A stretch of DNA of 41,110 bases from Escherichia phage smaasur, in the sequence record MN850625.1. The stretch is one strand, 5' to 3'. The position numbers and the translations under genes are program-made. The notes beneath the pieces were generated by a model. The model was not told the origin of the DNA. It saw only the letters and a program-made list of their open reading frames with translations, and made no database searches. This document shows positions 7,432-27,799 of this stretch, piece after piece (position 1 is the first letter of the stretch; the number at the start of each line of letters is the position of its first letter).

Positions 7432-7692
7432 TTAACTCCCAATGCCGAGGTTGCTTGCTACACCCGTTCCGGTGCGGCGGCGTCGGCCCGACAGAGTATC
7501 GGAGGCAGAGCTAACCTGACCACCGGACTGAATCGTTGGGGTGTTATCGTTCGACAAGTCGGCTGCGAGGTTGGCCTGCATAGCCTGAGCCTTCACCTGC
7601 GCCGGGTCGGTCTTGATAGTGTACTTCGGGGCTTGGCTACCCAGTCCGAAGACAGAGCCAATACCTTTGAAAACTTTACCTACGCTACCCAT
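7432..7692 (-). CDS. small Gly-rich basic protein immediately upstream of portal (possibly gp7.3-like virion protein)
   Basis: 86 aa. C-terminus SGRRRRTGTGVASNLGIGS resembles my recollection of the T7 gp7.3 C-terminus; position before portal matches. Recollection-based. Confidence 0.4.
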   Translation of the reverse strand: MGSVGKVFKGIGSVFGLGSQAPKYTIKTDPAQVKAQAMQANLAADLSNDNTPTIQSGGQVSSASDTLSGRRRRTGTGVASNLGIGS

Positions 7693-8111
7693 TACGGTTT
7701 CTCCAAATCAATGAATCGGTACTCCTGAACATAAGGACGTACCATGTGGGAGTAACCGCACCAGCGCAACCCAGCTTGCCGGGCAGCGCGTTTGAGTTCG
7801 CGGAGGATGAGACGGGTCACTCCCCGGTTGCGATACTGGGGCCATACATACATGGCCATTACAACGGCGCACGGCCCCACATGAATATCGAACAGCTCAC
7901 CGAGATGAGCACAGCCCATGAGAGCACCGTCAGAATCATGGACGTACACATCTGTGCATCCGTTGGCGGTGGCATCATACATGGCGTCCACTATCACATC
8001 CCACGGTAAATCAGACCATTGGCGTTCATCCTGTATACCTTTGGCTACAGCAGTCCGAATGTCGATTGGCATCGTGGTGTGATGTATGTTGTCCACAACA
8101 GTTACTTTCAT
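7692..8111 (-). CDS. GNAT-family N-acetyltransferase (putative)
   Basis: 139 aa. AVVMAMYVWPQYRNRGVTRLILRELKRAARQAGL fits the GNAT beta4-alpha3 acetyl-CoA-binding pattern. Start ATG sits inside the repeated element ATGAAAGTAACTGTTGTG. Overlaps the upstream small gene by 1 nt (TAATG). Confidence 0.5.
   Translation of the reverse strand: MKVTVVDNIHHTTMPIDIRTAVAKGIQDERQWSDLPWDVIVDAMYDATANGCTDVYVHDSDGALMGCAHLGELFDIHVGPCAVVMAMYVWPQYRNRGVTRLILRELKRAARQAGLRWCGYSHMVRPYVQEYRFIDLEKP
8097..8111 (-). repeat. repeated element ATGAAAGTAACTGTT (copy 1, at the GNAT start codon)
   Basis: Exact 15-mer on the minus strand; extends to 18 nt (ATGAAAGTAACTGTTGTG, 8094-8111) shared with copy 4. Confidence 0.6.
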
Positions 8112-8293
8112 TACACAGTCCTTTCACGGATGAAGTCCAACACGTCCTGTTTACCCGCTTCTCTGTTCAGTAGTGAGATATCTGATTCATGGGTGATGGT
8201 CTTCCCTACCTTCTCCCATGTACCGAATGCCTTCTCTAAGAGAGCTAGTTGTCCTTTGTTGAACGTCACTCTGTCTAATGGTGAGTCTTTCAT
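8111..8293 (-). CDS. small protein (60 aa from MKDSPL), translationally coupled to the downstream GNAT gene
   Basis: ORF track gives 8111..8311; the internal ATG at 8293 has a GGAGA ribosome-binding site, so I start it there. Predicted short beta-strand followed by helix (RVTFNKGQLALLEKAF). Confidence 0.4.
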   Translation of the reverse strand: MKDSPLDRVTFNKGQLALLEKAFGTWEKVGKTITHESDISLLNREAGKQDVLDFIRERTV

Positions 8294-8336
8294 AGAGAAT
8301 CTCCAATGCACTACGAGAGTAATCTGGGTATACCAG

Positions 8337-8351
8337 AACAGTTACTTTCAT
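8337..8351 (-). repeat. repeated element ATGAAAGTAACTGTT (copy 2, just downstream of the RNA polymerase gene)
   Basis: Exact 15-mer on the minus strand, 26 nt downstream of the RNAP stop and 44 nt upstream of the ATG at 8293. Confidence 0.6.
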
Positions 8352-8376
8352 TAAGTGCAAGAAATATAAGACTAAA

Positions 8377-10809
8377 TTAGCAGAAGAATTTGGAGGATTT
8401 CTTGACCTCGTTGATATCCAACTGGCCCCGTGCTGGAGCTTCCTTAGAATATCTCACGGCAAGTTGTTGAATCGGGTCATTTTCCTCGTACATCTGCACG
8501 AATTTTTCACGGATGACTTTGTGCAGTAGACCTGCATGAGCTGCTGCAACACCGAACGAGTCATGAATGGATACCATGTACACCCCGTTATTCCACATCT
8601 CCCACAGGACTTTCGTCATGTGGCTGGCATCCATCGCATGTACAAAATTCGGAGCAATCGCAGCCGCGCATTTGCGACCGTCTGGCTTGTCGATGAACTC
8701 ACGCAGCTTGATGGCATGAACGCCCATCAGCTTGATACCCATAGTGGTCTCTTTGTGAGCCTGATACATGTTCACCACACGCAGACCAGACGGGGCAGTG
8801 AACTCCACATACTCACCGTTAGCCGCCGCCTCAGATGCGATAGCTTGCAGCCATGCCATCAGCTCAGCAGCCTTTGGCACCACGCGAGGAATTGCATCCC
8901 ACATGAACCCGGCGATGTACATTGCGCACTGGAACAGGGTGTACCCTTCCGGTAGCGGAGTGTTGTGCTCCCGTAAATACAGCGCATAGTAATCCACCAT
9001 GCCGTGGCGTGTCGCACCGTACACATAAGTCATCACAGGCTTCTTAGCCATACCGCGCTCTATGCCAGTCTGTATGAGCCACGAACCCAAGACAGTAGGG
9101 TTGGTTGCCTCTGCTTCCTTCAACGCCTCCAGAGCCGCCGTAGCGGTCTTAACGTAGATGTCTGCCTTACGTCCTACTGAATCAATCAGGTTAACCGCAG
9201 CCCCGCCCACCTCGTCACGCAGCATTGCTGAGAGATGTTGCAGACCTGAGCACGTCGCGTCCCACTGTGTCACCACACGGCACGGATACTCTTCCGGGTT
9301 CCCGCTATCCAGCGCACGCACCAGCTCTACCGCAGCCGCCCATGCACACAGTGGGCTGTCAGCCTCAGACCAGAATGAGTCGTATGCCTCTGGCAGACGG
9401 CAAGCCTCGCGCAGTCGCGGCATTGTCTTGTCCGTCCATGCCGCCCGGTCTTCAAAGTCTGTGGAGTCATAGCCGAAGCAGTTGGCCACATGAACCTTCA
9501 ACCAGAACAGACCCTCCTTACCAAGCGGCACCGGGTCAGCCAGCTCAAGCAAAGCACGAATCGCGTCAATGCCTTGCGGGTTCAGGGATGTGGCATAGTA
9601 GCAACGGCCACGAGTGTCGGCGTATGTCGGCAGGTAGATTCGCTCGTACACTTTGTACTGCTCAGCCTCACGCAGCGCACTGCTCAGCGCCTGAATCTGC
9701 GTGGTGAACTTCTTCATGTCGTTGTGGTAAATGCGAGTCTTAACCTTGAACTCGTGCGCCTCAGCGTCCATGCGCTGCTGCATCTCAGCCGGGAACTTGC
9801 TGATGTACTGGCCGAACGTTACGCCTTCCGGGATAGTGAACGGCAGCTTAGGCTCCACTGGAGCAACAGGCAACCCCATCACCCCGGTTCTGTTGGCTTG
9901 TAAGAACTCCAGCACCATCTTGTTCACGCGGAACGGAACGTTTGACAGCATCATGCACGGCTCAATCATCGGTCGTGGGTCAATACCTAACTTGCGATAC
10001 GCCGGGTGCTTGAGCTTGCTGATTACCGCATACGTTGCCGCCTGCCCCGGAGAGTGCCACATACCGCCAAAGCCATTCGCACTGATTTGAGCTGGCGGTA
10101 TAATCAGCGGCGGGTAGCAACTGATGCCGAGGTGTGGCAGCTTCATCCAATCCTCAAGCATGATGAGCACATCGTCATGCAGAGCGAAGTGCGCAGTCGC
10201 CCGGTTCTTCAAGCTACCGCCCACTCGGACAGTCTTGACCAGACCAGTCGGCTCGACAGCACGCATCATCAACTTGCCGATTGTGATGAGCGCACGCTGT
10301 GGCAGGCTTTCAATCTCGACACCAACATTTGCCGAGGCAGCGCGTGCCTTGTTGTAGATGTGGTTTGGCGACTTAGACTTGGACTTATTCACGTCGCGGC
10401 GAACCCTCTCCATATACGCAGCCTCACGCTTACCAGCCCGCTCAGCTCGTGCATAGACTACCTCAGCCATCATTGCCTGCCCCATCTCGCGGAGCAGTTG
10501 AGTCACGGCGGTACGCCCGGTCGCGCCGGACACCGCCATGCTCAGGGCCAGAGACGCGCAGGTCTTGGCCCCGACTTCACGAAGGTACGTGCGGTACTGC
10601 GCACCGAACCCACGAGTAGTTTCGTTCAGGATATCCAGCATTGCAGCTTCGACAGTGGGGTATGCCTCAACCATCGCTCGCTGCAACAGTGGCACCGCCG
10701 AGGCGCGGCCTGAGTCTATCGCATCTCGTACGTTATCTAACCAGCCTGCCCGGTGACGGGCACGCGCCTCTTCTTCCAGTCGAATCTGTTCTGCCAGCAA
10801 ATCCATCAC
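8377..10809 (-). CDS. T7-like single-subunit DNA-directed RNA polymerase
   Basis: 810 aa. [20 protein letters not shown] matches T7 RNAP motif A region [32 protein letters not shown]...SIHDSFG matches T7 motif C region PNFVHSQDGSHL...IHDSFGT. Confidence 0.95.
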   Translation of the reverse strand: [810 protein letters not shown]

Positions 10810-10815
10810 ATCCCC

Positions 10816-11082
10816 TTACTCGTAGTCGTCTTTGTTATTCGGCACATCAATGAACGTAGGCTCAGAGTAGCCCGGCTGCACCTGACTGCGCAGCCCCAGT
10901 TCACGCAGTACCTGCCGCTGCAATACCGGGTCGCTCGTACCCGTACCGCCGCAGGCTTCACACTCACACAGTACAATCTCTTTATTCATCAGCATACTGT
11001 GGAAGGTGCCGCTGCCATGACAGGCACCGCACACTTTACCATCAACCACTGTATCATCAAGCACTTTTTGATAGCGACTCAT
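10816..11082 (-). CDS. small Cys-rich zinc-ribbon protein
   Basis: 88 aa with CGACHGSG and CECEACGG (Cys pairs suggesting a Zn-binding ribbon). Function unknown. Confidence 0.45.
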   Translation of the reverse strand: MSRYQKVLDDTVVDGKVCGACHGSGTFHSMLMNKEIVLCECEACGGTGTSDPVLQRQVLRELGLRSQVQPGYSEPTFIDVPNNKDDYE

Positions 11083-11656
11083 TACGTTTCCTCAGTTCCA
11101 GTTCCAGAATGAACAGCGCATTGCACGCTGCATGGGCCAGATGGTGCAGGCCAGATTCACTGTCCAGTTCCTCACCATTACCCACTGCCAGCAGGTGGCG
11201 TATAAGCGCAGACTTGTAGCGCTCCTGACCTTCCGGCACAGTCTGCCACGAATGGGCAGCGTACTTCTGAGCGCCGAACGTCAGCACCTCGCCGACTGCG
11301 GCCAGTGCGTTCGGGCACCCATCAAACAGCAGAGCCATACGTGGCTTGCCACCGTCGAACTTCATACCGCCCGGCCCGGCACCCTTGGCCACGGCCACCT
11401 CAACGTCATGCGCTGGGTCGTACGGGTCAACCGGGATGAAGTGTGTCTCCACCGCTTGCACCTCGTACGGCTCCAGCACCAGCAGATGAGTCTTCCCATC
11501 CTTCACGCAGGTGTAGTAATCGCGGCTATCGTTCGGCACATCGTACGGTTCGTCGTACGTCAGGATGATACCCTGCTCAGCAATGTCGCTCAGCAGCGTG
11601 CCAGTGCCCCAGTTGCGTGCCGGGTCTAAGATAAACTTCTGACCTTTCTTACCCAT
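11057..11656 (-). CDS. hypothetical protein (199 aa from MGKKGQ)
   Basis: ORF track gives 11057..11734, but the ATG at 11656 has a GGAGGT ribosome-binding site and abuts the upstream stop at 11649. No motif recognised. Confidence 0.5.
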   Translation of the reverse strand: MGKKGQKFILDPARNWGTGTLLSDIAEQGIILTYDEPYDVPNDSRDYYTCVKDGKTHLLVLEPYEVQAVETHFIPVDPYDPAHDVEVAVAKGAGPGGMKFDGGKPRMALLFDGCPNALAAVGEVLTFGAQKYAAHSWQTVPEGQERYKSALIRHLLAVGNGEELDSESGLHHLAHAACNALFILELELRKRNESLSKSA

Positions 11657-12176
11657 TCGCCTTACCTCCATCGACCTTATCGCCAGCACCATCATACTTA
11701 GCATTTGCGTGAACATACTCGTGATTGTCCTCATACCGGGTCACTTCATAAACCGTGATGCCGAGGCTGCGCATGAAGTCCACGATGTGCGGCAGGTCAT
11801 CAAAGGCACATACGATGTTTTCAATGCCAATGTCTTCCAGCGCAGCACGCTTCATCTCAGTGTCCTTACGGCAGTCGCCAACCTCACGCATGATGAGCTT
11901 GTCGTACACCACCCCATTATCGTCGAGCCATTGCTCAGTTACTTCACGGGCCACGGCCCCGCGTCCGGTCAGAATGACAATGCGATACGTGAGGGCCAGA
12001 GCGTTCACAATGTCAATCGTATCCTGAAACGCAGGGTCATCTGCACCTGCCAAGTTGAACTCGGCCCATGCTTCATCAAGGTGGCGTCGGTCGGGCGGCG
12101 GCAGCAGGTGCAGACGCCAGCGGCCATCAGCCAACGTCCCGTCGAGGTCTACCACAACGGTATCTTTTAAGTTCAT
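11649..12176 (-). CDS. HAD-superfamily phosphatase (5'-nucleotidase or polynucleotide 3'-phosphatase-like)
   Basis: 175 aa. N-terminal VVVDLDGTLAD is HAD motif I (DxDGT); ILTGR motif II; AFDD acidic motif IV. Has a GGAGAAAG ribosome-binding site. Confidence 0.65.
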   Translation of the reverse strand: MNLKDTVVVDLDGTLADGRWRLHLLPPPDRRHLDEAWAEFNLAGADDPAFQDTIDIVNALALTYRIVILTGRGAVAREVTEQWLDDNGVVYDKLIMREVGDCRKDTEMKRAALEDIGIENIVCAFDDLPHIVDFMRSLGITVYEVTRYEDNHEYVHANAKYDGAGDKVDGGKANG

Positions 12177-12354
12177 CTTGCGCTTTCTCCAGTGCTTTCA
12201 ACATGTCAGGGATGTAGCACCACGGCAGGGTAACTTCGTCGTCGCCCTGTCGTATGACTACAGTGTCTTCAACTACCTCCACCTGTGTCCGGGCCGTCCA
12301 TTCGACAGCCCAGCCATTGGCAGTGAGTTGGATTACGTCATCATCGTATATCAT
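12127..12354 (-). CDS. hypothetical small protein
   Basis: 75 aa ORF; start overlaps the stop of the upstream phosphoesterase gene and its 3' end overlaps the HAD gene start by ~50 nt. Confidence 0.35.
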   Translation of the reverse strand: MIYDDDVIQLTANGWAVEWTARTQVEVVEDTVVIRQGDDEVTLPWCYIPDMLKALEKAQDELKRYRCGRPRRDVG

Positions 12355-13475
12355 TCCAACATCTCAGGACTAATGGTGAAGCGAGCCACCTCACCGAACC
12401 GGGCGTGATAGGTAATCACGCTGGCACTCCGCTCACTTAACCACCCGCCGCGAGACGCATACGCATCCTTAGCCGCCAGCGTGCGGTGCTGCTCAACAAC
12501 CATAATCGGAGACTCCAGCACTTTCTTGTGGTGGAGGTGGCCGACGTGAGCGTAAGCATGTTTCGTTCTGCCATACACTTCGCGGTACTTGGCAACCAGT
12601 ACAGTCTCAAGCTGCTCGGCCTTACGCTTGTGACCGTGGTGGAAGAACAGCGCAGTCTCGCCGAACTCGTAGCAGTAGTACGGGTCAGGGTTACGGTCAA
12701 CCGTGACACGCGGCTCGTCTTCGTACAGTGCAGTCAGCAGCTCGCGCAGCCAGATGGAGCTGGCCATGTCATGGTTGCCCTCAGCACAGATGACGTGAAC
12801 CTGTGGGAACTTATCCAGCAGCATGGCAATGATGCGGCGCAGTGAACGAATAGCCACACGGGTCAGCTTCTGGAACCGGGTGTCGGCGTCCAGTACGTGG
12901 CCGCTTGATGGCGTCACTGCGTCCAGCCCATCCCAGTGCAGGAAGTCACCGAGCTGACCAAGCACAGCTACCTGCGCTGGCGGCGCTGACTCAATGGCGG
13001 CAGCGAACCACTTGACCAGTAGGTCTTCTGCAATCCGCATATCCCAATCAGCACCAGTCTCTTCAGCCCACGACAACATACCCAAGTGGTAGTCGGTCAA
13101 CACGAACAGGTCGAGCAGCTCAGCCGGGGCCGGGCCACGTCGGTACGGTCGTGGCAGCTCAGGTTTGATATCCTCGCAGATGGCATCGACTGCCTCCTGC
13201 AACAGCGCCAGCTCACGTTCATGGTCGAGCGCAGTCTTCACCCATTGCTGGACTACGTTGCCCTCTTTGTCATACAGCGTGGACGTACCCTTAATCATGT
13301 AGGGTTCGGGCACTTCCTTCGTCATGTCGTGTTCAGGACTCCAGCCACTCTTGGCGAGCTGACGCTTGCGATAACGAATAGCGCTCTCAGTCATGTCATG
13401 CTTGTCGGCGATTGCCTTGGTGCCGAGACCTTCGGCAATATCTTCTTTCAACTGCTGGTTCGACAGCTTCATCAT
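12351..13475 (-). CDS. calcineurin-like metallophosphoesterase with N-terminal helix-turn-helix-like region
   Basis: 374 aa. Metallophosphoesterase motifs in order: LTDYHLG (DxH), LGQLGDFLHWDG (GD), AEGNHD (GNHD/E), FFHHGH, GHLHH. N-terminal ~45 aa (GLGTKAIADKHDMTESAIRYRKRQL) looks HTH-like. Confidence 0.65.
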   Translation of the reverse strand: MMKLSNQQLKEDIAEGLGTKAIADKHDMTESAIRYRKRQLAKSGWSPEHDMTKEVPEPYMIKGTSTLYDKEGNVVQQWVKTALDHERELALLQEAVDAICEDIKPELPRPYRRGPAPAELLDLFVLTDYHLGMLSWAEETGADWDMRIAEDLLVKWFAAAIESAPPAQVAVLGQLGDFLHWDGLDAVTPSSGHVLDADTRFQKLTRVAIRSLRRIIAMLLDKFPQVHVICAEGNHDMASSIWLRELLTALYEDEPRVTVDRNPDPYYCYEFGETALFFHHGHKRKAEQLETVLVAKYREVYGRTKHAYAHVGHLHHKKVLESPIMVVEQHRTLAAKDAYASRGGWLSERSASVITYHARFGEVARFTISPEMLE

Positions 13476-13804
13476 TTCCCCTTAGTGATTACGGCACGCG
13501 CTCTCGCTGCTGCGGCCTTCTTACGTTTCGCGGCTGCGGCTTCCTTCTTCTCAGCCTCCGTCTTATGCGTCGGATACATCAACCCGGTGTGCTGCTTACG
13601 CCGCCACTCAATGGCGCTGTCCAACCAGTCGTCCACCGTGCGCTGGCGCTTGGCTCGGTTGGCAGAGTTCTCTACCTTACCGAGCTGCGCATTGCACCAG
13701 CGGCAGATGACACCGCGTATTTCCCCAGTCACATGGTCGTGGTCAACAACCATGAGCTTGAGGTCAACCATTGGTTCATTACAGAGTGGGCAAGGACAAC
13801 CCAT
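13472..13804 (-). CDS. endonuclease VII-like (HNH/DHDH) Holliday-junction resolvase
   Basis: CPLCNEPM...VVDHDHVTGEIRGVICRWCNAQLG matches the T4 endonuclease VII pattern (CxxC, DHDH, G.VRGLLC..CN). Start uncertain: 13804 or 13852, both overlapping the exonuclease gene. Confidence 0.75.
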   Translation of the reverse strand: MGCPCPLCNEPMVDLKLMVVDHDHVTGEIRGVICRWCNAQLGKVENSANRAKRQRTVDDWLDSAIEWRRKQHTGLMYPTHKTEAEKKEAAAAKRKKAAAARARAVITKGK

Positions 13805-14756
13805 CGCACTCTTCCGTAGGTGCAGCAGTGTCGCGCCAGTCACTTTCCTCATACCACTTCTCCATCAATTTCTTGTGGAGCCACACACGCAGCTCCTTGC
13901 TCAGAGTCAGCGTGTTCAGGTGAGCGGCGAATGTATACTCCGGCGTGCGCAGCAGCCACAGGGCCACGGCTTCTGGCCACGGGTTCTGGTCTTTGGCCAT
14001 GTACTCCCGCAGTACCAGCTCGGCTACTGCTGACTCATCCTCGGTTTCCTGATAGCTCTCCAGTAAATCCCACGCTCTTTGCTTGCCACACTTAACGAGT
14101 CCGGCTATGGCGTCAGCAGTATCGCCCATCAGCATCTGCGCCCAAAAGAATATTGGGCCGTGACCAATGAGAGACTTGTCACTCTTCGTCTCGTGCCACC
14201 ACAGCGTGCCGATACCCTTGCACGGCTCCAGCACCTTGTTGTCGTACGGGTCGAGGAAGCGCCCCGGCCAACAACGCAGGTCTTTGTCAGCGCTGTAGAT
14301 TACAGCGTGCTCCAGCCCCAGCGTCCAAGCGTCCATGATTAAGGTGTCGTCTGCCTCAACGTCGAAGTTCAGGTGAACGTACCAATCCTCGCCGTCCGGG
14401 ATATTGAACATGTTGCGGCCAATAGCTTTACGCAGTGGCTCGACCAACCCCGGCTTCCGGTCTTTATCACGGTTGCTCTGGTACAGCTTGACACCGCGCA
14501 GCTTGTACCGCCCAGCCTTCTTGCACTCAGCAGCAGTCAGCTCGATACGAACCGACTGAGCATTAGCAAGGAACTTGGCAGTCAGGACGCCGGAGCAGAA
14601 GCGCGTTTTGGCTGTCTCGATGTTCTTCGTTGTGGCTGCGGCCACATACACTGTTGAGTCTGCGTCGCAAAGAAGTACGCGCCCCGCAACGTATCCGTCA
14701 AATTGGTCTTCATCAATCGCTCCGGCTGTCGCCAACAAGCGCTGCAATCTGCTCAT
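13779..14756 (-). CDS. 5'-3' exonuclease (T7 gp6-like, FEN family)
   Basis: 325 aa. SADKDLRCWPGRFLDPYDNKV and MGDTADAIAG resemble recalled T7 gp6 SCDKDFKTIPNCDFLW and KGDITDGYSG. Confidence 0.85.
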   Translation of the reverse strand: MSRLQRLLATAGAIDEDQFDGYVAGRVLLCDADSTVYVAAATTKNIETAKTRFCSGVLTAKFLANAQSVRIELTAAECKKAGRYKLRGVKLYQSNRDKDRKPGLVEPLRKAIGRNMFNIPDGEDWYVHLNFDVEADDTLIMDAWTLGLEHAVIYSADKDLRCWPGRFLDPYDNKVLEPCKGIGTLWWHETKSDKSLIGHGPIFFWAQMLMGDTADAIAGLVKCGKQRAWDLLESYQETEDESAVAELVLREYMAKDQNPWPEAVALWLLRTPEYTFAAHLNTLTLSKELRVWLHKKLMEKWYEESDWRDTAAPTEECDGLSLPTL

Positions 14757-14910
14757 CGACTCTCCTTAACACTTCGTTCTGAAACATCTGCCTGAGCGTA
14801 AAGAACATGTCGTAGCTCATGGACACTGTTTCGCGGCGGCTCTTGATTACCATGCTCATGCTCTTGGGGTCGTCATAGTAGATGACCTCTCTTTCATCAA
14901 GCTCTCTCAT
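14713..14910 (-). CDS. hypothetical small protein
   Basis: 65 aa ORF between the 301-aa gene and the exonuclease; overlaps the exonuclease start. Confidence 0.3.
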   Translation of the reverse strand: MRELDEREVIYYDDPKSMSMVIKSRRETVSMSYDMFFTLRQMFQNEVLRRVDEQIAALVGDSRSD

Positions 14911-14945
14911 AAAACCTCCAAGGCACTTCCCTGTGCCCTTATCAG

Positions 14946-15851
14946 TTACAGGCTCGGCAGGCCGAAGTCAGCATCGCCAGTCACGTCAGGCTCCGGCGAG
15001 GTCTCGGTCGCACCCTTCTTACCACCCTTCTTGGTAGGCAGTTCCTCCGGCTCCGGCGTTACTTCCTTCGCTTCCTCCTGCGTCTCTTCCAGCTCAGGCA
15101 GCTCAGAGATTGCAGAGCCAGCGCCGCCGCCATTCAGCAGCAGGTCAAGCGGAGAGCCGGGATACTCAGGGCTGGACAGCAGAGCGTCCTGAATCCAGTT
15201 CTTGGATTTACCCTCGTCGTTCTTCCCTTCAATGTACAGGGATTCCCAGTCTTCCTTGGTAGGACGGTTCCACAGGAACAGCTTGAACAGAGACTCGTCC
15301 TCAACCTCCGGCACATCGAACGGCTCATCAGTCACCGGGTTAACTGCGAGGCTGATGTTCTCAAGGTCGATGTTGGCGTACACCTTCTTGTTCTCGCCCT
15401 CGCCTGATTCGTTATGCACGATAGGCAGGATGAACGTATTGTTCAGGAGCTGAGCGAAGTGCTTCGCAGTCTTCTCCGGGTTCATACGCTTGAACAGTTT
15501 GTACGCGCCGGACTTACTGTTGAGGTCTTTCTTAACAGCAATGAACTGCGTGCGTACAATGCCCGGCACCATCTTGCCATCCACCACCTCGTGGTAGGTG
15601 GAAGTCTTGTCCTTGCCCTTACCCCACACTGCAAACTTGAGGAAGAACTTATTGACAGGCGGCTTGCTTGCGTCCTGCTTAATAGGCTGCGGCCCGATTT
15701 CCACATACTGAATCAGGCGAGCCAGTGCCTTACCTTCCGGCATCAGCTTACCGCCGCCACCGGACACGGCTTCGTTAAAGTCTACGCCTTCTTCTTCAAC
15801 GAACTGTTCAACGATGGTGTTAAAGCGATTCAATACACTCGGCTTAGTCAT
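14946..15851 (-). CDS. hypothetical protein with acidic C-terminal tail (possible ssDNA-binding protein)
   Basis: 301 aa, Lys-rich body with a Glu/Asp-rich C-terminal tail (ELEETQEEAKEVTPEPEEL...DADFGLPSL). Sits beside the DNA polymerase. The SSB assignment is inference from the acidic tail and location only. Confidence 0.35.
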   Translation of the reverse strand: MTKPSVLNRFNTIVEQFVEEEGVDFNEAVSGGGGKLMPEGKALARLIQYVEIGPQPIKQDASKPPVNKFFLKFAVWGKGKDKTSTYHEVVDGKMVPGIVRTQFIAVKKDLNSKSGAYKLFKRMNPEKTAKHFAQLLNNTFILPIVHNESGEGENKKVYANIDLENISLAVNPVTDEPFDVPEVEDESLFKLFLWNRPTKEDWESLYIEGKNDEGKSKNWIQDALLSSPEYPGSPLDLLLNGGGAGSAISELPELEETQEEAKEVTPEPEELPTKKGGKKGATETSPEPDVTGDADFGLPSL

Positions 15852-18337
15852 ATCTCGATACCCTTAGATTTCAGAAAGTTACGTTTGAACTCCAGCACTT
15901 CTTCGGCTGTCGTCTCTACGTGGTGCTTCTCATACATGCTTGGGCCTGCTTCCACCTCTGCCGGGAACGGCACCGTCAGGTCATACTCAGGCCAGATGTG
16001 GTTGTAGTATTCCGGGATGGATTCCATGATTGCCTTGAGTCCAACGAAGAACTCGTGAGGACAGTCAGGTGCCACGTCGAAATAGAATGCGTCATGCACT
16101 TGGTTGATGGGAACCACACGCCCACCAAAGAAGTCATTGCTCAGCAGCCAGCGGAACAACAGGCCACCGATACCCTGCACCCAAAACGCGGTCTCACCCT
16201 GAATCGGATAGTTACGCATTTGGGTTGGCTTGTACTCCATCAAATACCCACGAGCTGCGCTGTTCCATTTCTCGTACTGACGGAATGAATAGCAGGTGCC
16301 ACCCGGAGATTTGTAGAAGCCACGGCGGTAGACGCACCACCGTCCATTCTCATCCTGCTCCTTGAACACATTGCTCTGACCGGACTTCTCCACTGCCGGG
16401 AAGATAACCTTGTCGAACCATGCTTCCACTTCTGGAAACAGACTCTTCTCGTTGTCGATGAATGCCTGTGCCTCTTCCTCAGTACAGCCAGTGGAGTACG
16501 CGATGCCTCGCGCTGTCGCACCGTACTGATATGAGAATGCCTTCGGCTTGATATCGGTACGCATCTGGCTATAGCGTTCGTGGTCAGGGTGGGATTCATC
16601 CTTCGCCTTACGCTTCACCTCTTCGTAATCTTCCTCAAGCTGCGCGGCTAGACGCATACAGTGCATGTCGATGTTATCCATCAGAGCCTTAACGAGATTC
16701 TTATCCTTACTGAATCCCGCCAGCCCTACTACTTCCAGCGCCGAGTAGTCAGCCTCGACTATCCTGCCGCCCGGCCCGAACCGGGAGGTGAACATCTGCT
16801 TAACTTTACTCGTACCTTTACGCGGAAGGTTCTGGCTATTCGGTCGTGCCGATGATAAGCGAGTGGTCTCCGTCGCAGTCATGTTAATGGTGTGATGTAC
16901 AATCCCATCCGGCTGGATGAACTGCATCATACCTGACTGGCCAGTGACGTTACCCTCTTCGTCGAAGGTCTCACTCAAGTAGTAGGTGCCGAGGTCTTTC
17001 TGTGACTTGGCACGTTCAGCGATTTCAACCACACCGGGAATCTTACGGGCAGCCAGAATCTCCAGCACCTCACCCGCCGTACTGAACACAGGCGTGCCGT
17101 CAGCCAGCTTGCGCTTGCCTACCCAGTCACCTGTGCGCCGGAGATATTCACCCGGACGCTTCGGGTCTTCCCATACGAGGTTGTCTGCTATCTCCTTCGC
17201 TCGTCTGTCCTTGTCGCGGAGCAGACCGGGCAGCGGGTACAGCACATCGCCCCACTTGGTGTCCACCTCATCTGTCGCCAGCTTCTCGAACTTAGGCTCG
17301 CCCTTGAACTTGCCTGCCGTGTACAGAGTTTGGTGTACCTTCTCAACCGGGTCATACCATAGCCCGGACTCTTCATCGAACTCGCACTCTTCCTTGTGCT
17401 TCAACCACTTCTCCTTGCCACGCTTGAACAGCGGAGCATCCACCTTCACGTAGATTGGATTGCCGTCTGCATCAGTGCGTGGTACGCGGGTCGTATACTT
17501 CATGACGCCGCCGAAGACGAACGCTGACATGTGGTATGCCGACGTGAACTTGAACTGGTTACGTGCTTCCTCCGGCATATCGTCCGGCAGGTAGTCCAGC
17601 AGCTTCTGTGTCAGCTCGTCAATCTGCGTGCGTAACTCCTGACGATTCCGCTCAGCCACTTCACGGTCAACGTGCAAGCCGCTGTGCATCATGTACGCCC
17701 ACATCAGCATCCCTTCCATACGGGTCAGTGCCATCGGCAGCATACCTTGTTTGGTAAGCTCAGCCCACTGCCCGACGAACACCTTCGTGGTGTTCTCGAT
17801 ATCGCCGCTCGGCCCGGACAGGTACTCACTCAGCAGCTCCGGGTCAATCTGGCTGGTCAGATAACCTGACTCCCACATTGCCTTGACTGCATCCACCTTG
17901 TGAGTACCGCCGTACTTCGGCGCGGTTTCGTTTAACGATGGGTACTGCGATTGCTGGTGAGTCAGCAGGTACTCTGCATACGCGGTACAGAATACACGGC
18001 CACCTCGTTTGAGGAATGCAGTGAACTCGTCACCGTAATGCAGGAACCACCAGCTCAGTTCGTACGGCGCGTTGTGTGCCACCAGTATGTTCGTGTCGGG
18101 GTGCAGGTGCAGACTCTTGTTCTGCAACCAGTCTTCCCTTGACGTGTACCGATACTCTTCGCGCTCGTAGAACTCCCAGCCATTCTTCGTCAGCACACAA
18201 TCGCGCTGGCCTTGCATCACGACGTAGTTGTCCGGGCAGCGTGGAGATGCCAGCTCACCGTACCAGTCATGGTTCTCGGTCTCAACGTCAATGACCTGTG
18301 CTCGAATTGCCATTACCCCTCCGCTATGCTGTGCCAC
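15848..18337 (-). CDS. family A DNA polymerase with N-terminal 3'-5' exonuclease domain
   Basis: 829 aa. Pol I motif A (ADYSALEVV), motif B (KPKAFSYQYGATARG), motif C (QVHDAFYF); N-terminal DVETEN exo I-like motif. Confidence 0.95.
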   Translation of the reverse strand: MAQHSGGVMAIRAQVIDVETENHDWYGELASPRCPDNYVVMQGQRDCVLTKNGWEFYEREEYRYTSREDWLQNKSLHLHPDTNILVAHNAPYELSWWFLHYGDEFTAFLKRGGRVFCTAYAEYLLTHQQSQYPSLNETAPKYGGTHKVDAVKAMWESGYLTSQIDPELLSEYLSGPSGDIENTTKVFVGQWAELTKQGMLPMALTRMEGMLMWAYMMHSGLHVDREVAERNRQELRTQIDELTQKLLDYLPDDMPEEARNQFKFTSAYHMSAFVFGGVMKYTTRVPRTDADGNPIYVKVDAPLFKRGKEKWLKHKEECEFDEESGLWYDPVEKVHQTLYTAGKFKGEPKFEKLATDEVDTKWGDVLYPLPGLLRDKDRRAKEIADNLVWEDPKRPGEYLRRTGDWVGKRKLADGTPVFSTAGEVLEILAARKIPGVVEIAERAKSQKDLGTYYLSETFDEEGNVTGQSGMMQFIQPDGIVHHTINMTATETTRLSSARPNSQNLPRKGTSKVKQMFTSRFGPGGRIVEADYSALEVVGLAGFSKDKNLVKALMDNIDMHCMRLAAQLEEDYEEVKRKAKDESHPDHERYSQMRTDIKPKAFSYQYGATARGIAYSTGCTEEEAQAFIDNEKSLFPEVEAWFDKVIFPAVEKSGQSNVFKEQDENGRWCVYRRGFYKSPGGTCYSFRQYEKWNSAARGYLMEYKPTQMRNYPIQGETAFWVQGIGGLLFRWLLSNDFFGGRVVPINQVHDAFYFDVAPDCPHEFFVGLKAIMESIPEYYNHIWPEYDLTVPFPAEVEAGPSMYEKHHVETTAEEVLEFKRNFLKSKGIEI

Positions 18338-19007
18338 CCAAATGGTCGGGCATACGATTCACGTACTCCTGAATGCGTGGCAGCAACTTCTCGTGCTTCT
18401 CTAACATGTAAGCCAGACGACTCATGCTCGCATCCGGTCGGCATACACGCAGGGTCAGCAGGTCGTCGTAGCTTTCTACCAGACTGGCCAGCGCCGGATA
18501 CCACTGCACATCCTCGGCAGTCAGCTTCGGCTCATACGGGTACGCCATGAAGTCACCGGGGTCACGGCTGTACTGGCCGGAGTAGCGCGGGATACTGGAC
18601 GGGAAGTAGAACTGGTTCAGGTTGAAGTCGAACTCGTTCAGCACCTGTGACCAGCAGCCGCACTTACTGATGATGATATCGACCGGGCCAACTTTGTACA
18701 CGCCGTACAGTCGAGAGCCAAAGTCGCCGCCCTCTTCTGCGTCGTGGTAACTCGGCATGTACTCATAGGCCAGCCTGTGCTCAGCAGCCCAGTCCTCCAG
18801 CCGGGAGTCCAGCCAGTCCAGTCGGCGAGCAACGCGCTGCACGTCACCGCCCCAACCGAACACCACGATATCAAAGTCCTTCGGGTCTACACCAAGCGCG
18901 GTGTCTCGTGCCCCACCCCCTGCAACGACAAAGCTCAGCTCTTCGCCCTGCAACAGCCGACAGATTTCCTCTGCCCACACGCGCTTGAAGTCGTTATCAC
19001 TTGTCAC
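18324..19007 (-). CDS. Pol-beta-superfamily nucleotidyltransferase with CCA-adding-enzyme-like head motif
   Basis: 227 aa. VVAGGGARDTALGVDPKDFDIVVF matches the class II tRNA nucleotidyltransferase / poly(A) polymerase head signature GGxxRDxxLGxxxxDxD; a third acidic residue follows at PVDIIIS. Confidence 0.55.
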   Translation of the reverse strand: MTSDNDFKRVWAEEICRLLQGEELSFVVAGGGARDTALGVDPKDFDIVVFGWGGDVQRVARRLDWLDSRLEDWAAEHRLAYEYMPSYHDAEEGGDFGSRLYGVYKVGPVDIIISKCGCWSQVLNEFDFNLNQFYFPSSIPRYSGQYSRDPGDFMAYPYEPKLTAEDVQWYPALASLVESYDDLLTLRVCRPDASMSRLAYMLEKHEKLLPRIQEYVNRMPDHLGGTA

Positions 19008-19218
19008 TTTTCTTTCTCCCCTTGGTATAGGTGAAGTTAACCACGGCGTAGATATCTTCGGGTGCTACGTTGAAGCGTTCACCCAATGCCTCGGCACCAC
19101 GGAATGCGTCGCCCTTCCGGTACTGTGCCCGGATGAGTTCCTGCTCACGTTGGTTTAAGGGTGCCGCTCGATACGTGCGTTCTTCCATACTGTTTCGCTC
19201 CACACTTTTCACACTCAT
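18997..19218 (-). CDS. small helix-turn-helix protein (sigma-70 region-4-like)
   Basis: 73 aa; LNQREQELIRAQYRKGDAFRGAEALGERFNVAPEDIYAVV resembles the region-4 HTH pattern of sigma factors and LuxR-type regulators. Confidence 0.35.
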   Translation of the reverse strand: MSVKSVERNSMEERTYRAAPLNQREQELIRAQYRKGDAFRGAEALGERFNVAPEDIYAVVNFTYTKGRKKSDK

Positions 19219-19308
19219 AAATCACCAGCACTTTGCCAGTGGCCTTGCCCTTGACCTGCTCAGTTAGCAGGCTGCCGCCGCAAGAGCAACGACGATAGCT
19301 GCGCCCCT

Positions 19309-19662
19309 TCACCACTTGCTCGGCACTGAGCCGGACAGGTAGTTAGTCGTAGGCTTACGCTCGATGTACTGATTGTACCGCGACATGGCATCACACGCCG
19401 CCTGATACAGACGCTCAGCTTCTGCATAGCTCCAGTCTTCGTCAGTGCTCGTCGGCTCCGGCACCTTGGCTACTTCATCCAGTAGCTCCCAGCACTCTGG
19501 CCGCGCAGTCCACGAACCATAGATACCGGAACCACGCGAGCCATCGTCGCGCCGGATGCTGATGCACTTGCTGTCGATATCCACCACAGTACCAGTCGCG
19601 CCGAAGTGTACGCTCTTGGTATCACAGTTACGAACGCGGTCGCCTACCTTTATCTTGCTCAT
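19309..19662 (-). CDS. hypothetical protein with N-terminal GDRVR motif (small paralogous family)
   Basis: Start placed at 19662 (MSKIKVGDRVR), where ATG overlaps the helicase stop as ATGA. Shares an N-terminal pattern with the genes at 21647..22099 and 24363..24626. Confidence 0.5.
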   Translation of the reverse strand: MSKIKVGDRVRNCDTKSVHFGATGTVVDIDSKCISIRRDDGSRGSGIYGSWTARPECWELLDEVAKVPEPTSTDEDWSYAEAERLYQAACDAMSRYNQYIERKPTTNYLSGSVPSKW

Positions 19663-20927
19663 CACATATCCTCGAATTGACATTTATCAGCATAGAAGTG
19701 AACCTGCGAACGGACGTTGGACGGACGCCCAGCTATCTGCCGCTTGTTCTTAGGAGTGCTCACGCCGCGCCGCGCTGCCAGCGCCGGGTCGTAAACGGAA
19801 CCCAGCATGACAATCACATCGGTCGCACCTTGGATACCAGTCTTGGAATCCTTGAGTGCGTCCAGCGCGGGGAACATATCGTCGGCACCGTCTGCGGATA
19901 CCTGAACCGTAGCCAGCGATACGAAGTCATGACGTACCGCCAGCTCACGTACCTCCTGCCAGAGCTGCTCGACTTGGCTGGCCTTGTTGCTGTTAGCGTC
20001 AGCCACAGACAACTTGAAGTTTGCCAGCATATCCCACACCACGATGCAGGGATTCATTGCTTCAATCACCTGCTCCGCTTTGGCCAACGTCGCGCCGTGC
20101 ATGTCCTTCACACGGATGATGTTGGCCGGGGCATTCAACGCCTTCGCGTACTTCTCATGCAGCTTCTTCCTGTCGGCACCCAGTGCTTTTAACTCCGGGA
20201 GCGTACAGCCGAGCGCCGCTTGGTAGATGCGCGGGATGATGTTGATGCCCTGCCCTTCGTTGTTGAACCATAAGATTGGTCGGCCCGGATACAGCTTCGC
20301 TGCTGTCGCCGCCATTCTCGTAAGGTTAAACGCGATGAAGGAAGTCTTGCCACTGTCGGGTCGAGCGCCGATTGCAACGGAGTCACCGGGGAGAAGTACC
20401 CTAACGCTATCTTGCAGACACATGAGACCGAACTTGAAACCTTGGTCATCATCTGTCCGATTGATAATATCAACCACATCATCATCAACGTAATCAGTGA
20501 CAGATGACTGCCCTCGACTGCGGCGTGCGCCTTCTGCAAGGCGGCCCAGCTCATAGATGAAATCAATCTCATCGCCATTGTCGTACCTCTGTGCAAGGAG
20601 GTTAACCTTGCCTGCTGTATCCAGCTCGACTAACTGGTCGATGATGCCTTCGGTCTGCTGCTTCGTCGGCTGGTATTCCTTGAGCTGCTGGCATAGCGAT
20701 TCGAACGCAGCCATCTGCTCCGGTGTACTCCCAGTCTTGAGCCGGACGTGTGTGCCTAGCGTTTCCATATCCACGTAGTCTGAATCCGGGAACGCCTCGA
20801 AGTATGAGCCATACGCACGCAGCATGTAGCCTGTGGTCTGACTCATAGTGTCCTCTGGAATGGCATGGCGCAGGGAGTTATACTTCCCGCGCTCACGCAT
20901 GACAGAGAGCAACAGTTTGTCTAACAC
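19662..20927 (-). CDS. DnaB-like (SF4) replicative DNA helicase
   Basis: 421 aa. Walker A GARPDSGKTS; Walker B-like IVVWDMLANF; RecA-like core. No zinc-finger or primase domain in this ORF. Confidence 0.8.
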   Translation of the reverse strand: MLDKLLLSVMRERGKYNSLRHAIPEDTMSQTTGYMLRAYGSYFEAFPDSDYVDMETLGTHVRLKTGSTPEQMAAFESLCQQLKEYQPTKQQTEGIIDQLVELDTAGKVNLLAQRYDNGDEIDFIYELGRLAEGARRSRGQSSVTDYVDDDVVDIINRTDDDQGFKFGLMCLQDSVRVLLPGDSVAIGARPDSGKTSFIAFNLTRMAATAAKLYPGRPILWFNNEGQGINIIPRIYQAALGCTLPELKALGADRKKLHEKYAKALNAPANIIRVKDMHGATLAKAEQVIEAMNPCIVVWDMLANFKLSVADANSNKASQVEQLWQEVRELAVRHDFVSLATVQVSADGADDMFPALDALKDSKTGIQGATDVIVMLGSVYDPALAARRGVSTPKNKRQIAGRPSNVRSQVHFYADKCQFEDM

Positions 20928-20936
20928 ATTACCCTC

Positions 20937-21650
20937 CTATATTGTTCGCACCCTGCCACACACTCTCAGCTCACGCCTGAGCCTGTCGCTCTGTCGGTGC
21001 TGCAATGATATCACTTCATAACGATTGGCCAGCGCAACGCTAACCAGAGCGCGTACGGTGGCATCGTCGGCATTGGCTACGAACGCTGCATTGCCATCCA
21101 CTCTGTCACCACGACGAACGTGGTCGAGATATGCTGATGCACTGTCGTAAATCCATATCCCTTTGAACTCATCGTCGTCATGATTACTTACTGTCACTGC
21201 CATTAGATGGTTGTGTGGCGAGCGCCACGGAATGAACTGCCGCCCGGTATAGTCCAGACCGCAGTAGCTTGCCGAGTTGTCCGGCAAGTAGATACGCCCG
21301 TACGTTGGGCTGGCAGACAACACACTCAGGTGTGGCAGCAGCTCGTTCTTCTCCAGCGCTGGCAATAACAGACCGGGCTGTTTCGCTATCACCTCAATGA
21401 GAGGCACAACGTCAGTCGGTATCTTCACTTGCTCTTTGGCTGGCGATACATACGGTGCATGGTTGAGGGGTTTAAAATCAGAGTGGCCACAGCGATGGCA
21501 CTTGCACCATACGCCCTCGCTGTTCCGGCCATACTCAAAGTTGGTCTTATTGAATGAGCGTGAGCAAGCGTGAAACGTCCGACGCTTTTGTCCTATCGGC
21601 AGACGCCTCGCCAGCTCCGGCCATTCATCATTGCCCACTGACTTTCTCAT
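20937..21650 (-). CDS. putative DNA primase (Cys-rich zinc-binding N-terminus)
   Basis: 237 aa directly upstream of the helicase. N-terminal HACSRS...CKCHRCGH cysteine/histidine cluster resembles primase zinc-binding domains. TOPRIM motifs not confidently identified. Confidence 0.4.
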   Translation of the reverse strand: MRKSVGNDEWPELARRLPIGQKRRTFHACSRSFNKTNFEYGRNSEGVWCKCHRCGHSDFKPLNHAPYVSPAKEQVKIPTDVVPLIEVIAKQPGLLLPALEKNELLPHLSVLSASPTYGRIYLPDNSASYCGLDYTGRQFIPWRSPHNHLMAVTVSNHDDDEFKGIWIYDSASAYLDHVRRGDRVDGNAAFVANADDATVRALVSVALANRYEVISLQHRQSDRLRRELRVCGRVRTI

Positions 21651-22099
21651 TCGTTATCCCACTCCGGCTCGTACTTAACTACACGTTTCATATTGACGCT
21701 ACCCACCACACGCAATACACGGGCAGTGCAGCCGTACGTTCTGGCCAATCTCTCAGCCTCGCGCCGCGCCGACTCTTCCGTAGTGTGCTCAACCTTCGGC
21801 GGCGTAGAGCCACCTACAACTACGCACATGAACCTGCCCCGGCTCGGCTCGGCCACAGGTTCAGGCTCGCCTATCAGCACGGTGTTGGAGGTTAGCCAGT
21901 CAGATTTGTAGCGCCCTATCTCCGGCTCCGTTCTGCGGTATCCGTTCTCTGACATGTACCAATGCACGAGGTATTTGATATCACCTTGCGGAGCATCTGG
22001 CCGTGCATAAATTACAATGCCTTCTGAGCCACGGCGCGTACCACAGTTGGAGCCAACCATTCGTATGCGGTCGCCCATTGCATAGGTCTTATCTACCAT
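21647..22099 (-). CDS. hypothetical protein with N-terminal GDRIR motif (small paralogous family)
   Basis: 150 aa; begins MGDRIRMVGSNCGTRRGSEGIVIYAR, paralogous pattern to the genes at 19309..19662 and 24363..24626. Confidence 0.5.
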   Translation of the reverse strand: MVDKTYAMGDRIRMVGSNCGTRRGSEGIVIYARPDAPQGDIKYLVHWYMSENGYRRTEPEIGRYKSDWLTSNTVLIGEPEPVAEPSRGRFMCVVVGGSTPPKVEHTTEESARREAERLARTYGCTARVLRVVGSVNMKRVVKYEPEWDNE

Positions 22100-22296
22100 T
22101 TAATCCACCCCCGGTTCTGGCCTACACTCAGGCTCAACTGCATCAGACCCCAGCCTACCAGCATACCGAGCAGCGTGCCCAGTGTTGAGGTGGCTGACTC
22201 ACCGACCGCAGGGATAAGCACCAGTGATGCAAGACCCACCCACAATGCTCCCCAAATAATTATCAGAAGCAGGAACAACAATATTACTTTGAGCAT
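22093..22296 (-). CDS. small membrane protein (two predicted transmembrane helices)
   Basis: Start placed at ATG 22296 (MLKVILLFLLLIIIWGALWVGLASLVLIPAVG...), preceded by GGAGGAGA. The ORF track's longer frame begins further upstream and includes the repeated ATGAAAGTAACTGT element at 22318-22332. Confidence 0.45.
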   Translation of the reverse strand: MLKVILLFLLLIIIWGALWVGLASLVLIPAVGESATSTLGTLLGMLVGWGLMQLSLSVGQNRGWIKW

Positions 22297-22317
22297 ATCT
22301 CCTCCGATGTTGTGCAA

Positions 22318-22332
22318 TACAGTTACTTTCAT
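22318..22332 (-). repeat. repeated element ATGAAAGTAACTGTa (copy 3, 14/15 match)
   Basis: On the minus strand, 22 nt upstream of the ATG at 22296 of the small membrane protein gene. Confidence 0.55.
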
Positions 22333-22364
22333 GGTGGCATCTCTCACGAAATGCCACGAGTAAG

Positions 22365-22607
22365 TCACTTAATTGTTTCGACCTTGGACAAATCATACTG
22401 CCCGTCAGCCAGCCGTTCCGGGTACAGGAACTGCGCCCGGCCATCGGTAACACCTTCGAAGTGCAGCATCTCAGGATTGTATTCGTCCCGACCTTTGAAG
22501 ATGAACTTGCCTGCATTCACTTCCAGTGCGACCGAACAGAACACACCGCCGCTCAGCTTGTACGCGGAACCGACTTCAAGTTTGCTTTCGTCTTTGATGA
22601 TAGTCAT
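22365..22607 (-). CDS. hypothetical small protein
   Basis: 80 aa ORF in the early gene block; no motif recognised. Confidence 0.45.
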   Translation of the reverse strand: MTIIKDESKLEVGSAYKLSGGVFCSVALEVNAGKFIFKGRDEYNPEMLHFEGVTDGRAQFLYPERLADGQYDLSKVETIK

Positions 22608-22760
22608 GCTGGTACTCCCATTCTGTTTACGATACGTTGCAGGTCATCTCGTTTAGCTTCGGCCTGCCACTTTGTGTCACGGACAGCAAACGGTCTGCCC
22701 GGTAGGTCAGCGTACACCACCCACCAGTGCTTACCAGTGGGTGATTTACGCACCACTAAT

Positions 22761-23276
22761 TCAGTGGAGCGTTGCACGTTTCACCTCGCTCGCCGCCGCC
22801 AGCAGCTCACCCAGTCCTTCCTTCAACTGTTGCAGCATGGCATCCAGTACCTCGCCAGCGAACAACACACTTGCGTGCGTCTCGCTCAGGTCGGCAGGCA
22901 CATTCTCACATGCCTGATACCAGTCGTGGTAGCTGGCGTGTACCGTCTCTTCACATGCGAAACGGATAACCAGCGCTGCCGCCATGCGGAGCTGCACCGC
23001 ACGGTCTGTTTCACCTGCTGCCTCCAGAGACTTGGTGCCGAGGCCAGCCAGCAGTGTGATGTTGCGTGCGATGATGGCACCAGTACGGGTCGGCGGGATG
23101 ATATCCACCATGTCCAGTCGGCCTGCCTTAATCGCTGCCACGTACGTCATCTTTGGCAGGAAGCCGCCACGAAATTCAATCACGTCGGATACTTCCGGGC
23201 GCTCATCAATCTCTGCGGCCATGCGTTTGGTTAATTCGAACTGCTGTTTGTCGAACGTTGCGAAGTTAATAGCCAT
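22761..23276 (-). CDS. hypothetical protein
   Basis: 171 aa ORF, tightly packed with neighbours. Confidence 0.5.
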   Translation of the reverse strand: MAINFATFDKQQFELTKRMAAEIDERPEVSDVIEFRGGFLPKMTYVAAIKAGRLDMVDIIPPTRTGAIIARNITLLAGLGTKSLEAAGETDRAVQLRMAAALVIRFACEETVHASYHDWYQACENVPADLSETHASVLFAGEVLDAMLQQLKEGLGELLAAASEVKRATLH

Positions 23277-23279
23277 GAT

Positions 23280-27535: not shown

Positions 27536-27779
27536 TACACTCCAGATTGTTAAAGAGCATGGCTAACCGTCTAGCCCACCGTGTAACGATGTTCTGTTAC
27601 CCGGCGATGAGAATTACAGCAAATCACAAAGAGCATTGCAAGTATTATTTTCACTGAATACCTCAAATAGTGGATAAGTTATTGTATTCATTGATAATAA
27701 ATATTTGATTGAATAGGTTATTGCATAGCTTACATACAGCAGAATAACCGTAAATAAATCCTTTTAAATCAATGAGTAA

Positions 27780-27794
27780 ATGAAAGTAACTGTT
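27780..27794 (+). repeat. repeated element ATGAAAGTAACTGTT (copy 4, inverted, at the edge of the T-depleted terminus tract)
   Basis: Exact 15-mer on the plus strand, opposite to all genes; 18-nt identity with copy 1 (ATGAAAGTAACTGTTGTG). Sits at the junction between an AT-rich segment (27640-27780) and the T-depleted tract. Confidence 0.6.
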
Positions 27795-27799
27795 GTGTA

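Follow-up and report, generated by a model that had tools for sequence, protein, structure and literature searches.

Phage-specific promoters have been mapped or predicted in several relatives of the system described here. In the phiKMV-like phage LUZ19, ONT-cappable-seq located four such promoters with a common 20-bp motif (Putzeys et al. 2024, PMC10914365), and this promoter set is kept in 15 further Phikmvvirus species (PMC10914365). The strong promoter of phage KP34, T(A/G)ATGTTACAGGAGTA, was defined by in vitro transcription and 5' rapid amplification of cDNA ends (5'-RACE) (Lu et al. 2019, PMC6834552); its copies lie 5 nt after the RNA polymerase (RNAP) gene, at 33.7 kb and at 475-490, and transcripts start immediately 3' of it (PMC6834552). 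Cronobacter phage Dev-CD-23823 (CD23823) has the promoter AATGTATACCCCTATATACAC (Takatsuki et al. 2025, PMC12272871) and an RNAP of ~818 aa belonging to the phiKMV supergroup, and according to its authors the promoter fits no published category (PMC12272871). The GenBank record of Pantoea phage LIMEzero (FR751545) lists a "putative phage specific promoter" at 7294-7313 and at 20330-20349, as well as a terminator at 7255-7284. Here, we analyzed the genome of Escherichia phage smaasur (sequence record MN850625.1; the whole stretch of 41,110 nt is referred to as the window), in which an element of 18-19 nt recurs at the starts of gene modules. We conclude from sequence comparison, with a probability of roughly 0.88, that this element is a promoter recognized by the phage's own 810-aa single-subunit (T7-type) RNA polymerase. 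A preliminary description of the window had put the element forward as a candidate phage-polymerase promoter, a proposal supported by the conserved positions of the copies, by variants that track the specificity loop of the polymerase, by a natural polymerase swap in phage usur, by the promoter layout of LUZ19 and KP34, and by the annotation of LIMEzero.

Copies of the element and their positions

The 15-mer ATGAAAGTAACTGTT occurs exactly at 8097-8111 and 8337-8351, and with 14 of 15 bases at 22318-22332, all on the minus strand; these are the three coding-strand copies of the preliminary description, re-found here by pattern search. The true count is four, as an exact, inverted copy on the plus strand (27780-27794, within an 18-nt element at 27780-27797) had been overlooked. 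Alignment of the four copies gives a conserved core of 18-19 nt, (A/C)ATGAAAGTAACTGT(T/A)NTG, set in unrelated flanks. At element position 16, copies 1 to 4 have G, C, T, and G, respectively, and the TG at positions 17-18 is invariant. The copies, and the two genes needed to place them, are as follows:

8094..8112, minus strand: copy 1, AATGAAAGTAACTGTTGTG; its ATG (8111-8109) is the GNAT start codon; predicted +1 G at 8094, alternatively 8096
8334..8352, minus strand: copy 2, AATGAAAGTAACTGTTCTG; predicted +1 G at 8334
22315..22333, minus strand: copy 3, CATGAAAGTAACTGTATTG, directly 3' of a hairpin; predicted +1 G at 22315
27779..27797, plus strand: copy 4, AATGAAAGTAACTGTTGTG, inverted, pointing away from all genes toward the terminal repeat; predicted +1 G at 27797
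8377..10809, minus strand: single-subunit RNA polymerase gene, 810 aa (Pfam PF00940, 300 bits; T7 RNAP structures, E=1e-60)
7692..8111, minus strand: GNAT acetyltransferase gene (Pfam PF00583 and PF13508), whose first six codons are the putative promoter sequence of copy 1

A chance origin of the repeat is excluded. With up to 3 mismatches allowed, the 19-mer has 4 matches in the window against 0.01 expected, and a genus-level degenerate pattern, ATGARRGNNNCTNNNNTG, returns exactly the same 4 matches against 0.09 expected. An unbiased repeat search likewise placed the element as the top dispersed repeat outside low-complexity sequence (families D2, I1, I3, and I7). The preliminary description had suggested searching this genome and its relatives with mismatches allowed; such a search found the four copies in the window and no additional ones at up to 5 mismatches, and the relatives carry copies as well.

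The window is a complete podovirus genome of ~41 kb, shown as the reverse complement and circularly permuted, in which the minus strand is the coding strand for every long open reading frame (ORF). It belongs to Bonnellvirus, with a polymerase region 93.5% identical to that of Escherichia phage J8-65; Escherichia phage smaasur (MN850625) has been tabulated at 93.3% identity to J8-65 (PMC7552041). The 259-bp terminal repeat of J8-65 maps to 28102-28362 of the window, as one collapsed copy, and mapping of the J8-65 end places the left genome end at 28362.

Copies 1-3 have the same orientation as all genes and stand at module starts, and copy 4 is antisense. Copy 2 begins 24-25 nt past the RNAP stop codon and 41 nt upstream of a 60-aa gene (ATG 8293); together with copy 1, 240 bp away, it lies directly 3' of the polymerase gene. 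Copy 3 is found ~19-21 nt upstream of a 67-aa hydrophobic ORF (ATG 22296) at the head of the primase/helicase replication block, a gene that has its own GGAGG ribosome-binding site. The distances to genes given in the preliminary description were right within 1 nt (copy 2 at 25 nt after the stop, copy 3 at 21 nt before ATG 22296), as was its statement that copy 1 overlaps the GNAT start codon, the ATG being the first codon of the ORF at 7692-8111. Copy 4 lies ~565 nt from the left genome end, with an AT-rich stretch between it and three sigma-70-like promoters.

The positions are conserved among relatives. We scanned the whole genomes of J8-65, Lidtsur, Kc261, LF82-23, RZ4, megetsur, ROV85, usur, forsur, and the more distant LIMEzero, and compared the polymerase-proximal region alone (copies 2 and 1) in seven further genomes. 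Copies occupy the same four positions in each of these ten whole-genome relatives (eleven in the overall tally), LIMEzero included; copies 2 and 1 are present in all seven polymerase-proximal comparisons, and an equivalent of copy 1 is present in 17/17 genomes compared. The preliminary description had held that a lack of the element at equivalent positions in homologous phages would speak against it; all relatives carry copies there. A fifth copy, in frame inside the internal virion protein gene and encoding QM(R/K)(A/V)S(T/A)K, is found in LIMEzero (33867) and Lidtsur (33128). No fifth copy was found in the structural region of the window, where the corresponding stretch of the internal virion protein gene (~36088-36105, minus strand) reads ATGCGAGCATCTACTGCG, with 7 mismatches; the equivalent site in J8-65 has nearly the same sequence.

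Element variants and the polymerase gene

Each genome has its own variant of the element, common to its copies. The window and J8-65 have GTAACTGTT; Kc261 and usur have GCTACTATA; LF82-23, megetsur, altidsur, HHU8, aldrigsur, mellemsur, and BHUENT7 have GTGTCTATA; RZ4, ROV85, glasur, and forsur have GTGACTATA; LIMEzero has GGCAAGCACTA; and Lidtsur carries a looser GTA/GTG-ACTG set. Concerted variation of this kind, specific to each genome, suggests a cis site co-evolving with a reader that the phage itself encodes.

The T7 specificity loop reads about -10 to -8 of the promoter. In T7, T3, and SP6 promoters, a beta-hairpin loop is reported to read the specificity bases, and promoter and polymerase are said to co-vary between phages. 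The corresponding segment of the polymerase encoded in the window is:

8707..8754, minus strand: RNAP codons 686-701, KETTMGIKLMGVHAIK, aligning with the T7 specificity loop

In a HMMER alignment to T7 RNAP, the T7 residues R746, N748, R756, and Q758, reportedly the specificity-loop contacts, stand opposite T689, G691, A699, and K701. The loop segment varies between Bonnellvirus lineages and carries the sole indel of an otherwise nearly invariant C-terminal region, and across 16 Bonnellvirus genomes each loop type is paired one-to-one with an element type. Between Kc261 and RZ4 or LF82-23, substitutions are enriched in the loop (9/17 positions versus 9-11% elsewhere, p ~1e-5).

Linkage to the polymerase allele is most directly seen in usur, which we compared with forsur and Kc261 in 400-bp windows. 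The usur genome is forsur-like nearly everywhere, with one contiguous Kc261-like block at 18.4-21.2 kb (record 20700-23500; reverse-complement 18401-21200) that coincides with the polymerase gene (18341-20770) plus a short gene after it. All four usur elements have the Kc261-type bases and not those of forsur, even copies 3 and 4, far from the polymerase gene. At copy 3, 14 kb from that gene, flank identity is 96%/93% with forsur versus 95%/56% with Kc261; at copy 4, at a distance of 20 kb, the downstream flank matches forsur at 96.5% and Kc261 at 85.3%. As these distal copies are of Kc261 type within forsur-like flanks, element type follows the polymerase allele rather than local ancestry. 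The "Q-like" gene next to the usur polymerase falls in a forsur-like window (96% versus 91%), which excludes the Q-like protein as the reader. By these comparisons, usur seems to have undergone a natural polymerase swap, with compensatory changes in its promoters afterwards.

Several points weigh against reading the element as a polymerase promoter. Enrichment of loop substitutions is not significant between LF82-23 and RZ4 (3/17 versus 12.4%), nor between the window and Lidtsur, and other parts of the polymerase vary more than the loop, which ranks 12th of 391 windows in the C-terminal half. With enrichment statistics thus mixed, the argument rests on the one-to-one association and on the usur swap. 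The compared genomes collapse to only about six independent lineages, a small ORF was transferred together with the polymerase gene inside the usur block, and three isolated 400-bp windows elsewhere in usur are also Kc261-like. The start site is uncertain by ~2 nt, since position 16 differs among copies and only the TG at 17-18 does not, and the variant of the window, ACTGTTGTG, deviates from the T7/SP6 sequence CACTATAG.

Predicted transcription and alternative readings

Since nearly all copies and genomes keep the TG at positions 17-18, we predict that transcription starts at the invariant G of position 18, or else at position 16. With +1 at position 18, LIMEzero would read CACTAA|GG and the RZ4-type copy 1 TAT|GGGA, both of them T3/T7-like initiation contexts. 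A start at position 16, by analogy with T7 CTATA|G, was considered and dropped, as position 16 varies and both LIMEzero and the RZ4-type copy 1 fit position 18 better. Relative to the predicted start, copies 1 and 3 have (G/C)ACAACAT in common at about +2 to +9 (8086-8093 and 22307-22314, minus strand), which copies 2 and 4 do not have; this likeness may stem from a preference for a certain initially transcribed sequence, or from chance.

From these comparisons, we infer polymerase binding, the exact +1, the relative strengths of the copies, and the role of copy 4, and propose the following course of transcription. The host polymerase would act first, using sigma-70-type promoters near the left end, and would transcribe the early and replication genes ahead of the polymerase gene. 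The phage polymerase would next bind the ~17-bp element, with the 5' ATGAAAG at about -17 to -11 (the ATG at -17 to -15), a genome-specific triplet (GTA here) at about -10 to -8 that would be read by the specificity loop, and a CTGTT block at about -7 to -3, and would start at 8094, 8334, and 22315 on the minus strand and at 27797 on the plus strand. Copy 3 would re-drive the replication block from behind the hairpin, copies 2 and 1 would drive the ~21-kb structural, packaging, and lysis block, and copy 4 would fire leftward over the terminal repeat. Transcripts from copy 1 would begin 17 nt inside the GNAT gene and, being without the start codon, could not encode the full-length protein.

A different phage DNA-binding protein, such as a regulator (Q-like), a replication initiator, or a packaging factor, could also be what the element binds, as sites that evolve concertedly within each genome might suit any sequence-specific phage protein. 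The AT-rich stretch adjoining copy 4 near the genome end would be a plausible origin context for such a protein, and the small ORF in the swapped block of usur, like its three short Kc261-like windows, leaves room for one. We nonetheless consider this unlikely. The usur swap maps specificity to the polymerase-gene block, with the Q-like window forsur-like; the variants track the homologue of the specificity loop; the sister variants GACTATAG resemble the T7/SP6 initiation region; and the positions and orientations of the copies match the mapped promoters of the single-subunit RNA polymerases of LUZ19 and KP34.

It is very unlikely that the repeats are short recombination or module-boundary sequences with no direct role in expression. 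Copies do stand at module boundaries (early/replication, polymerase/structural, and genome end), mosaicism is seen among Bonnellvirus genomes, and the usur swap has one of its edges close to copies 2 and 1. However, exchange at such sequences would need them to be common between genomes, whereas they differ between genomes and are homogenized within each; the distal usur copies changed without exchange of their flanks; and neither the strict orientation of the copies nor the link to the polymerase loop would be explained.

That the conservation reflects coding or translation, with MKVTV N-termini or small leader peptides starting in the element, is hardly credible: an ATG does open every copy in the window, in copy 1 this ATG does start a gene and has a plausible ribosome-binding site, and both gp11 of J8-65 (5664) and usur_19 are annotated from the element's ATG, but copy 4 points away from all genes, where ORFs of at least 50 aa are absent, the frame of copy 2 overlaps the real 60-aa gene out of frame, the gene downstream of copy 3 has a GGAGG and an ATG 36 nt on, which is the start in most relatives' annotations, LIMEzero copies 2 and 3 read ATA and TTA instead of ATG, and the GNAT N-terminus shifts with the promoter variant (MKVTVV, MKATTM, MKVSTM, and MKVTIM). 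Since the GNAT N-terminus changes with the variant, the constraint lies on the nucleotide sequence; the preliminary description had already placed the conservation at that level, in agreement with both the GNAT N-termini and the LIMEzero copies. Judged by these comparisons, the conserved ATG belongs to the sequence that is recognized and is not a start codon. The annotated starts of J8-65 gp11 and of usur_19 (copy 2, record 20844-21110) coincide with the promoter ATG, and other relatives use a downstream ATG with GGAG; the two starts are probably mis-annotations caused by the element.

As a polymerase promoter, copy 4 would give rise to a transcript directed out of the genome:

27797..28362, plus strand: predicted leftward transcript of ~566 nt, from copy 4 to the left genome end across the terminal repeat

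Strand bias is extreme between copy 4 and the left end (27797-28370): as RNA, this stretch would contain 8.2% U, where the genome as a whole has 21% T, and its U-free runs reach 71 nt. By eye, the left end of LIMEzero shows a similar bias. We regard it as possible, though doubtful, that copy 4 drives a dedicated non-coding, U-poor RNA of ~570 nt across the terminal repeat with a specific role. If so, the RNA would cross the concatemer junction into the lysis genes of the preceding genome; it might help replication by priming or opening the left end, serve terminase as a mark of the junction, or block late read-through into the next early genes. For the equivalent antisense transcription in LUZ19, it has been suggested that late transcription may be kept out of the early genes (PMC10914365). 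All Bonnellvirus genomes examined, LIMEzero, and Phikmvvirus have an outward copy at the left end, so that the outward left-end promoter mapped in Pseudomonas phiKMV phages is also kept, as a predicted site, in distant enterobacterial relatives; this conservation argues for function, and the copy 4 RNA, if real, would be a general feature of phiKMV-type phages.

Two hairpins were noted:

22334..22357, minus strand: hairpin GTGGCAT-N10-ATGCCAC, ending 1 nt before copy 3, without a U-tract in the window
3586-3608, minus strand: hairpin GAAGCCC-N9-GGGCTTC followed by UAUGAUUGUCGUU, a U-rich tail, directly 3' of the major capsid gene

Pairing in the hairpin before copy 3 is accompanied by compensatory changes at 8/14 pairs, and it is a probable terminator or processing site closing the early region. 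A sigma-70/terminator scan detected no canonical terminator at this hairpin, and an Rfam search of the whole window returned zero matches. At the position of the second hairpin, LIMEzero has an annotated factor-independent terminator.

At the left end, three rightward sigma-70-like early promoters are visible by eye on the minus strand (27535-27507, 27398-27370, and 27319-27291). They have in common TTGACAAG, a 17-nt spacer, and TGTAAT or TGAAAT, and two of them share the longer TATGCTGTAAT. A consensus sigma-70 scan missed all three, owing to the G as second base of the -10 hexamer. Between these promoters and the first gene lies an untranslated leader of ~450 nt (~26840-27290, minus strand), without an Rfam match, and the first gene after it, with an ATG near 26837, is SAM-hydrolase/methyltransferase-like.

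Comparison with known promoter systems

For genome biology generally, a promoter set of this kind is an expected feature. What the comparison adds is the likely promoter of an uncharacterized phage RNA polymerase and, within one genus, five natural polymerase/promoter variants. With differences at only 1-3 promoter bases and a few loop residues, these variants would make a small set on which orthogonal polymerase-promoter pairs could be tested, studied, or engineered. Some annotated gene starts that fall on the promoter ATG would also be corrected. The word "promoter" is absent from the J8-65 paper, the Kc261 paper, and the Danish wastewater Bonnellvirus study, and the main text of PhageProm (PMC11880802) does not name the Bonnellvirus group.

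Like the class II/III promoters of the T7, T3, and SP6 polymerases, the element would place recognition over ~17 bp upstream and ends at the initiating G. It differs from the T7 arrangement in number (~17 copies in T7 versus 4 here), in having one copy antisense, and in that the polymerase gene here comes after the replication genes, not before them. The consensus of T7, T3, SP6, and K11, ...CACTATAG(G/A), was not found in the window (AACTGTTGTG), and only sister phages read GACTATAGTG. The preliminary description had called the sequence unlike T7, SP6, and K11, which holds for the core in the window; it does not extend to the sister Bonnellvirus variants, whose GACTATAG equals T7/SP6 from -6 to +1, or to the 5' (A/T)ATG, which is as in KP34, LUZ19, and CD23823. 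The element would work like the promoters of the T7 group, as far as sequence comparison indicates, and is not a sequence member of the T7/T3/SP6/K11 group.

Layout is closer to that of the phiKMV supergroup. As there, a copy lies just downstream of the RNAP gene, the copies number exactly 4 (3-5 in the supergroup), and one copy is antisense at the left end; the window has no copy inside the structural region and no sequence match to the LUZ19/KP34 motif beyond the 5' (A/T)ATG. LUZ19 resembles the window in having four copies, two of them after the RNAP gene, an antisense promoter (P001) as the analogue of copy 4, and a TATG near the 5' end. Its motif, GgtTATGTCACacACAnnGG, has no likeness beyond the ATG, its polymerase is only ~30% identical, and its fourth copy lies in the structural region, whereas that of the window precedes the replication genes; the LUZ19 starts are experimentally mapped and those of the window predicted from sequence. 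KP34 shares with the window a 5' TAATG, a copy right past the RNAP stop codon, a copy within 500 bp of the left end, a low copy number, and an initiating G. It differs in its 16-nt element, with another sequence after the ATG, in a polymerase that is ~33% identical, and in an unrelated weak promoter inside the RNAP gene. The CD23823 promoter aligns gap-free to the RZ4-type element, as ATG, 7 variable nt, and CTATA, and differs from the window in the specificity region, in a +1 reported as A, and in belonging to another genus, with an RNAP outside the relatives of at least 60% identity. The 5' (A/T)ATG common to the KP34, LUZ19, and CD23823 promoters would explain the ATG in every copy.

LIMEzero has its sites at homologous genomic positions. 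Its annotated site at 7294-7313 is the homologue of copy 3 and that at 20330-20349 the homologue of copy 2; as here, one lies behind a hairpin/terminator before the primase block and the other directly past the RNAP stop codon, and its terminator at 7255-7284 is the equivalent of the copy 3 hairpin. Our scan found further LIMEzero copies at the start codon in the GNAT position (20741) and, inverted, at the left end (655), and thus five by scan against two in the record, the fifth (in the internal virion protein gene) having no counterpart in the window. The two phages have in common the 5' A(T/A)(G/A)AA(A/G)G, as well as a G that does not vary at position 18. They differ in the core (GGCAAGCACTA versus GTAACTGTT), and their polymerases are only 66% identical; the LIMEzero sites are likewise predicted. 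Their prediction dates from 2011. The reading of the element as the promoter set of a phiKMV-type single-subunit polymerase is well supported by sequence, with homologous sites already predicted in LIMEzero.

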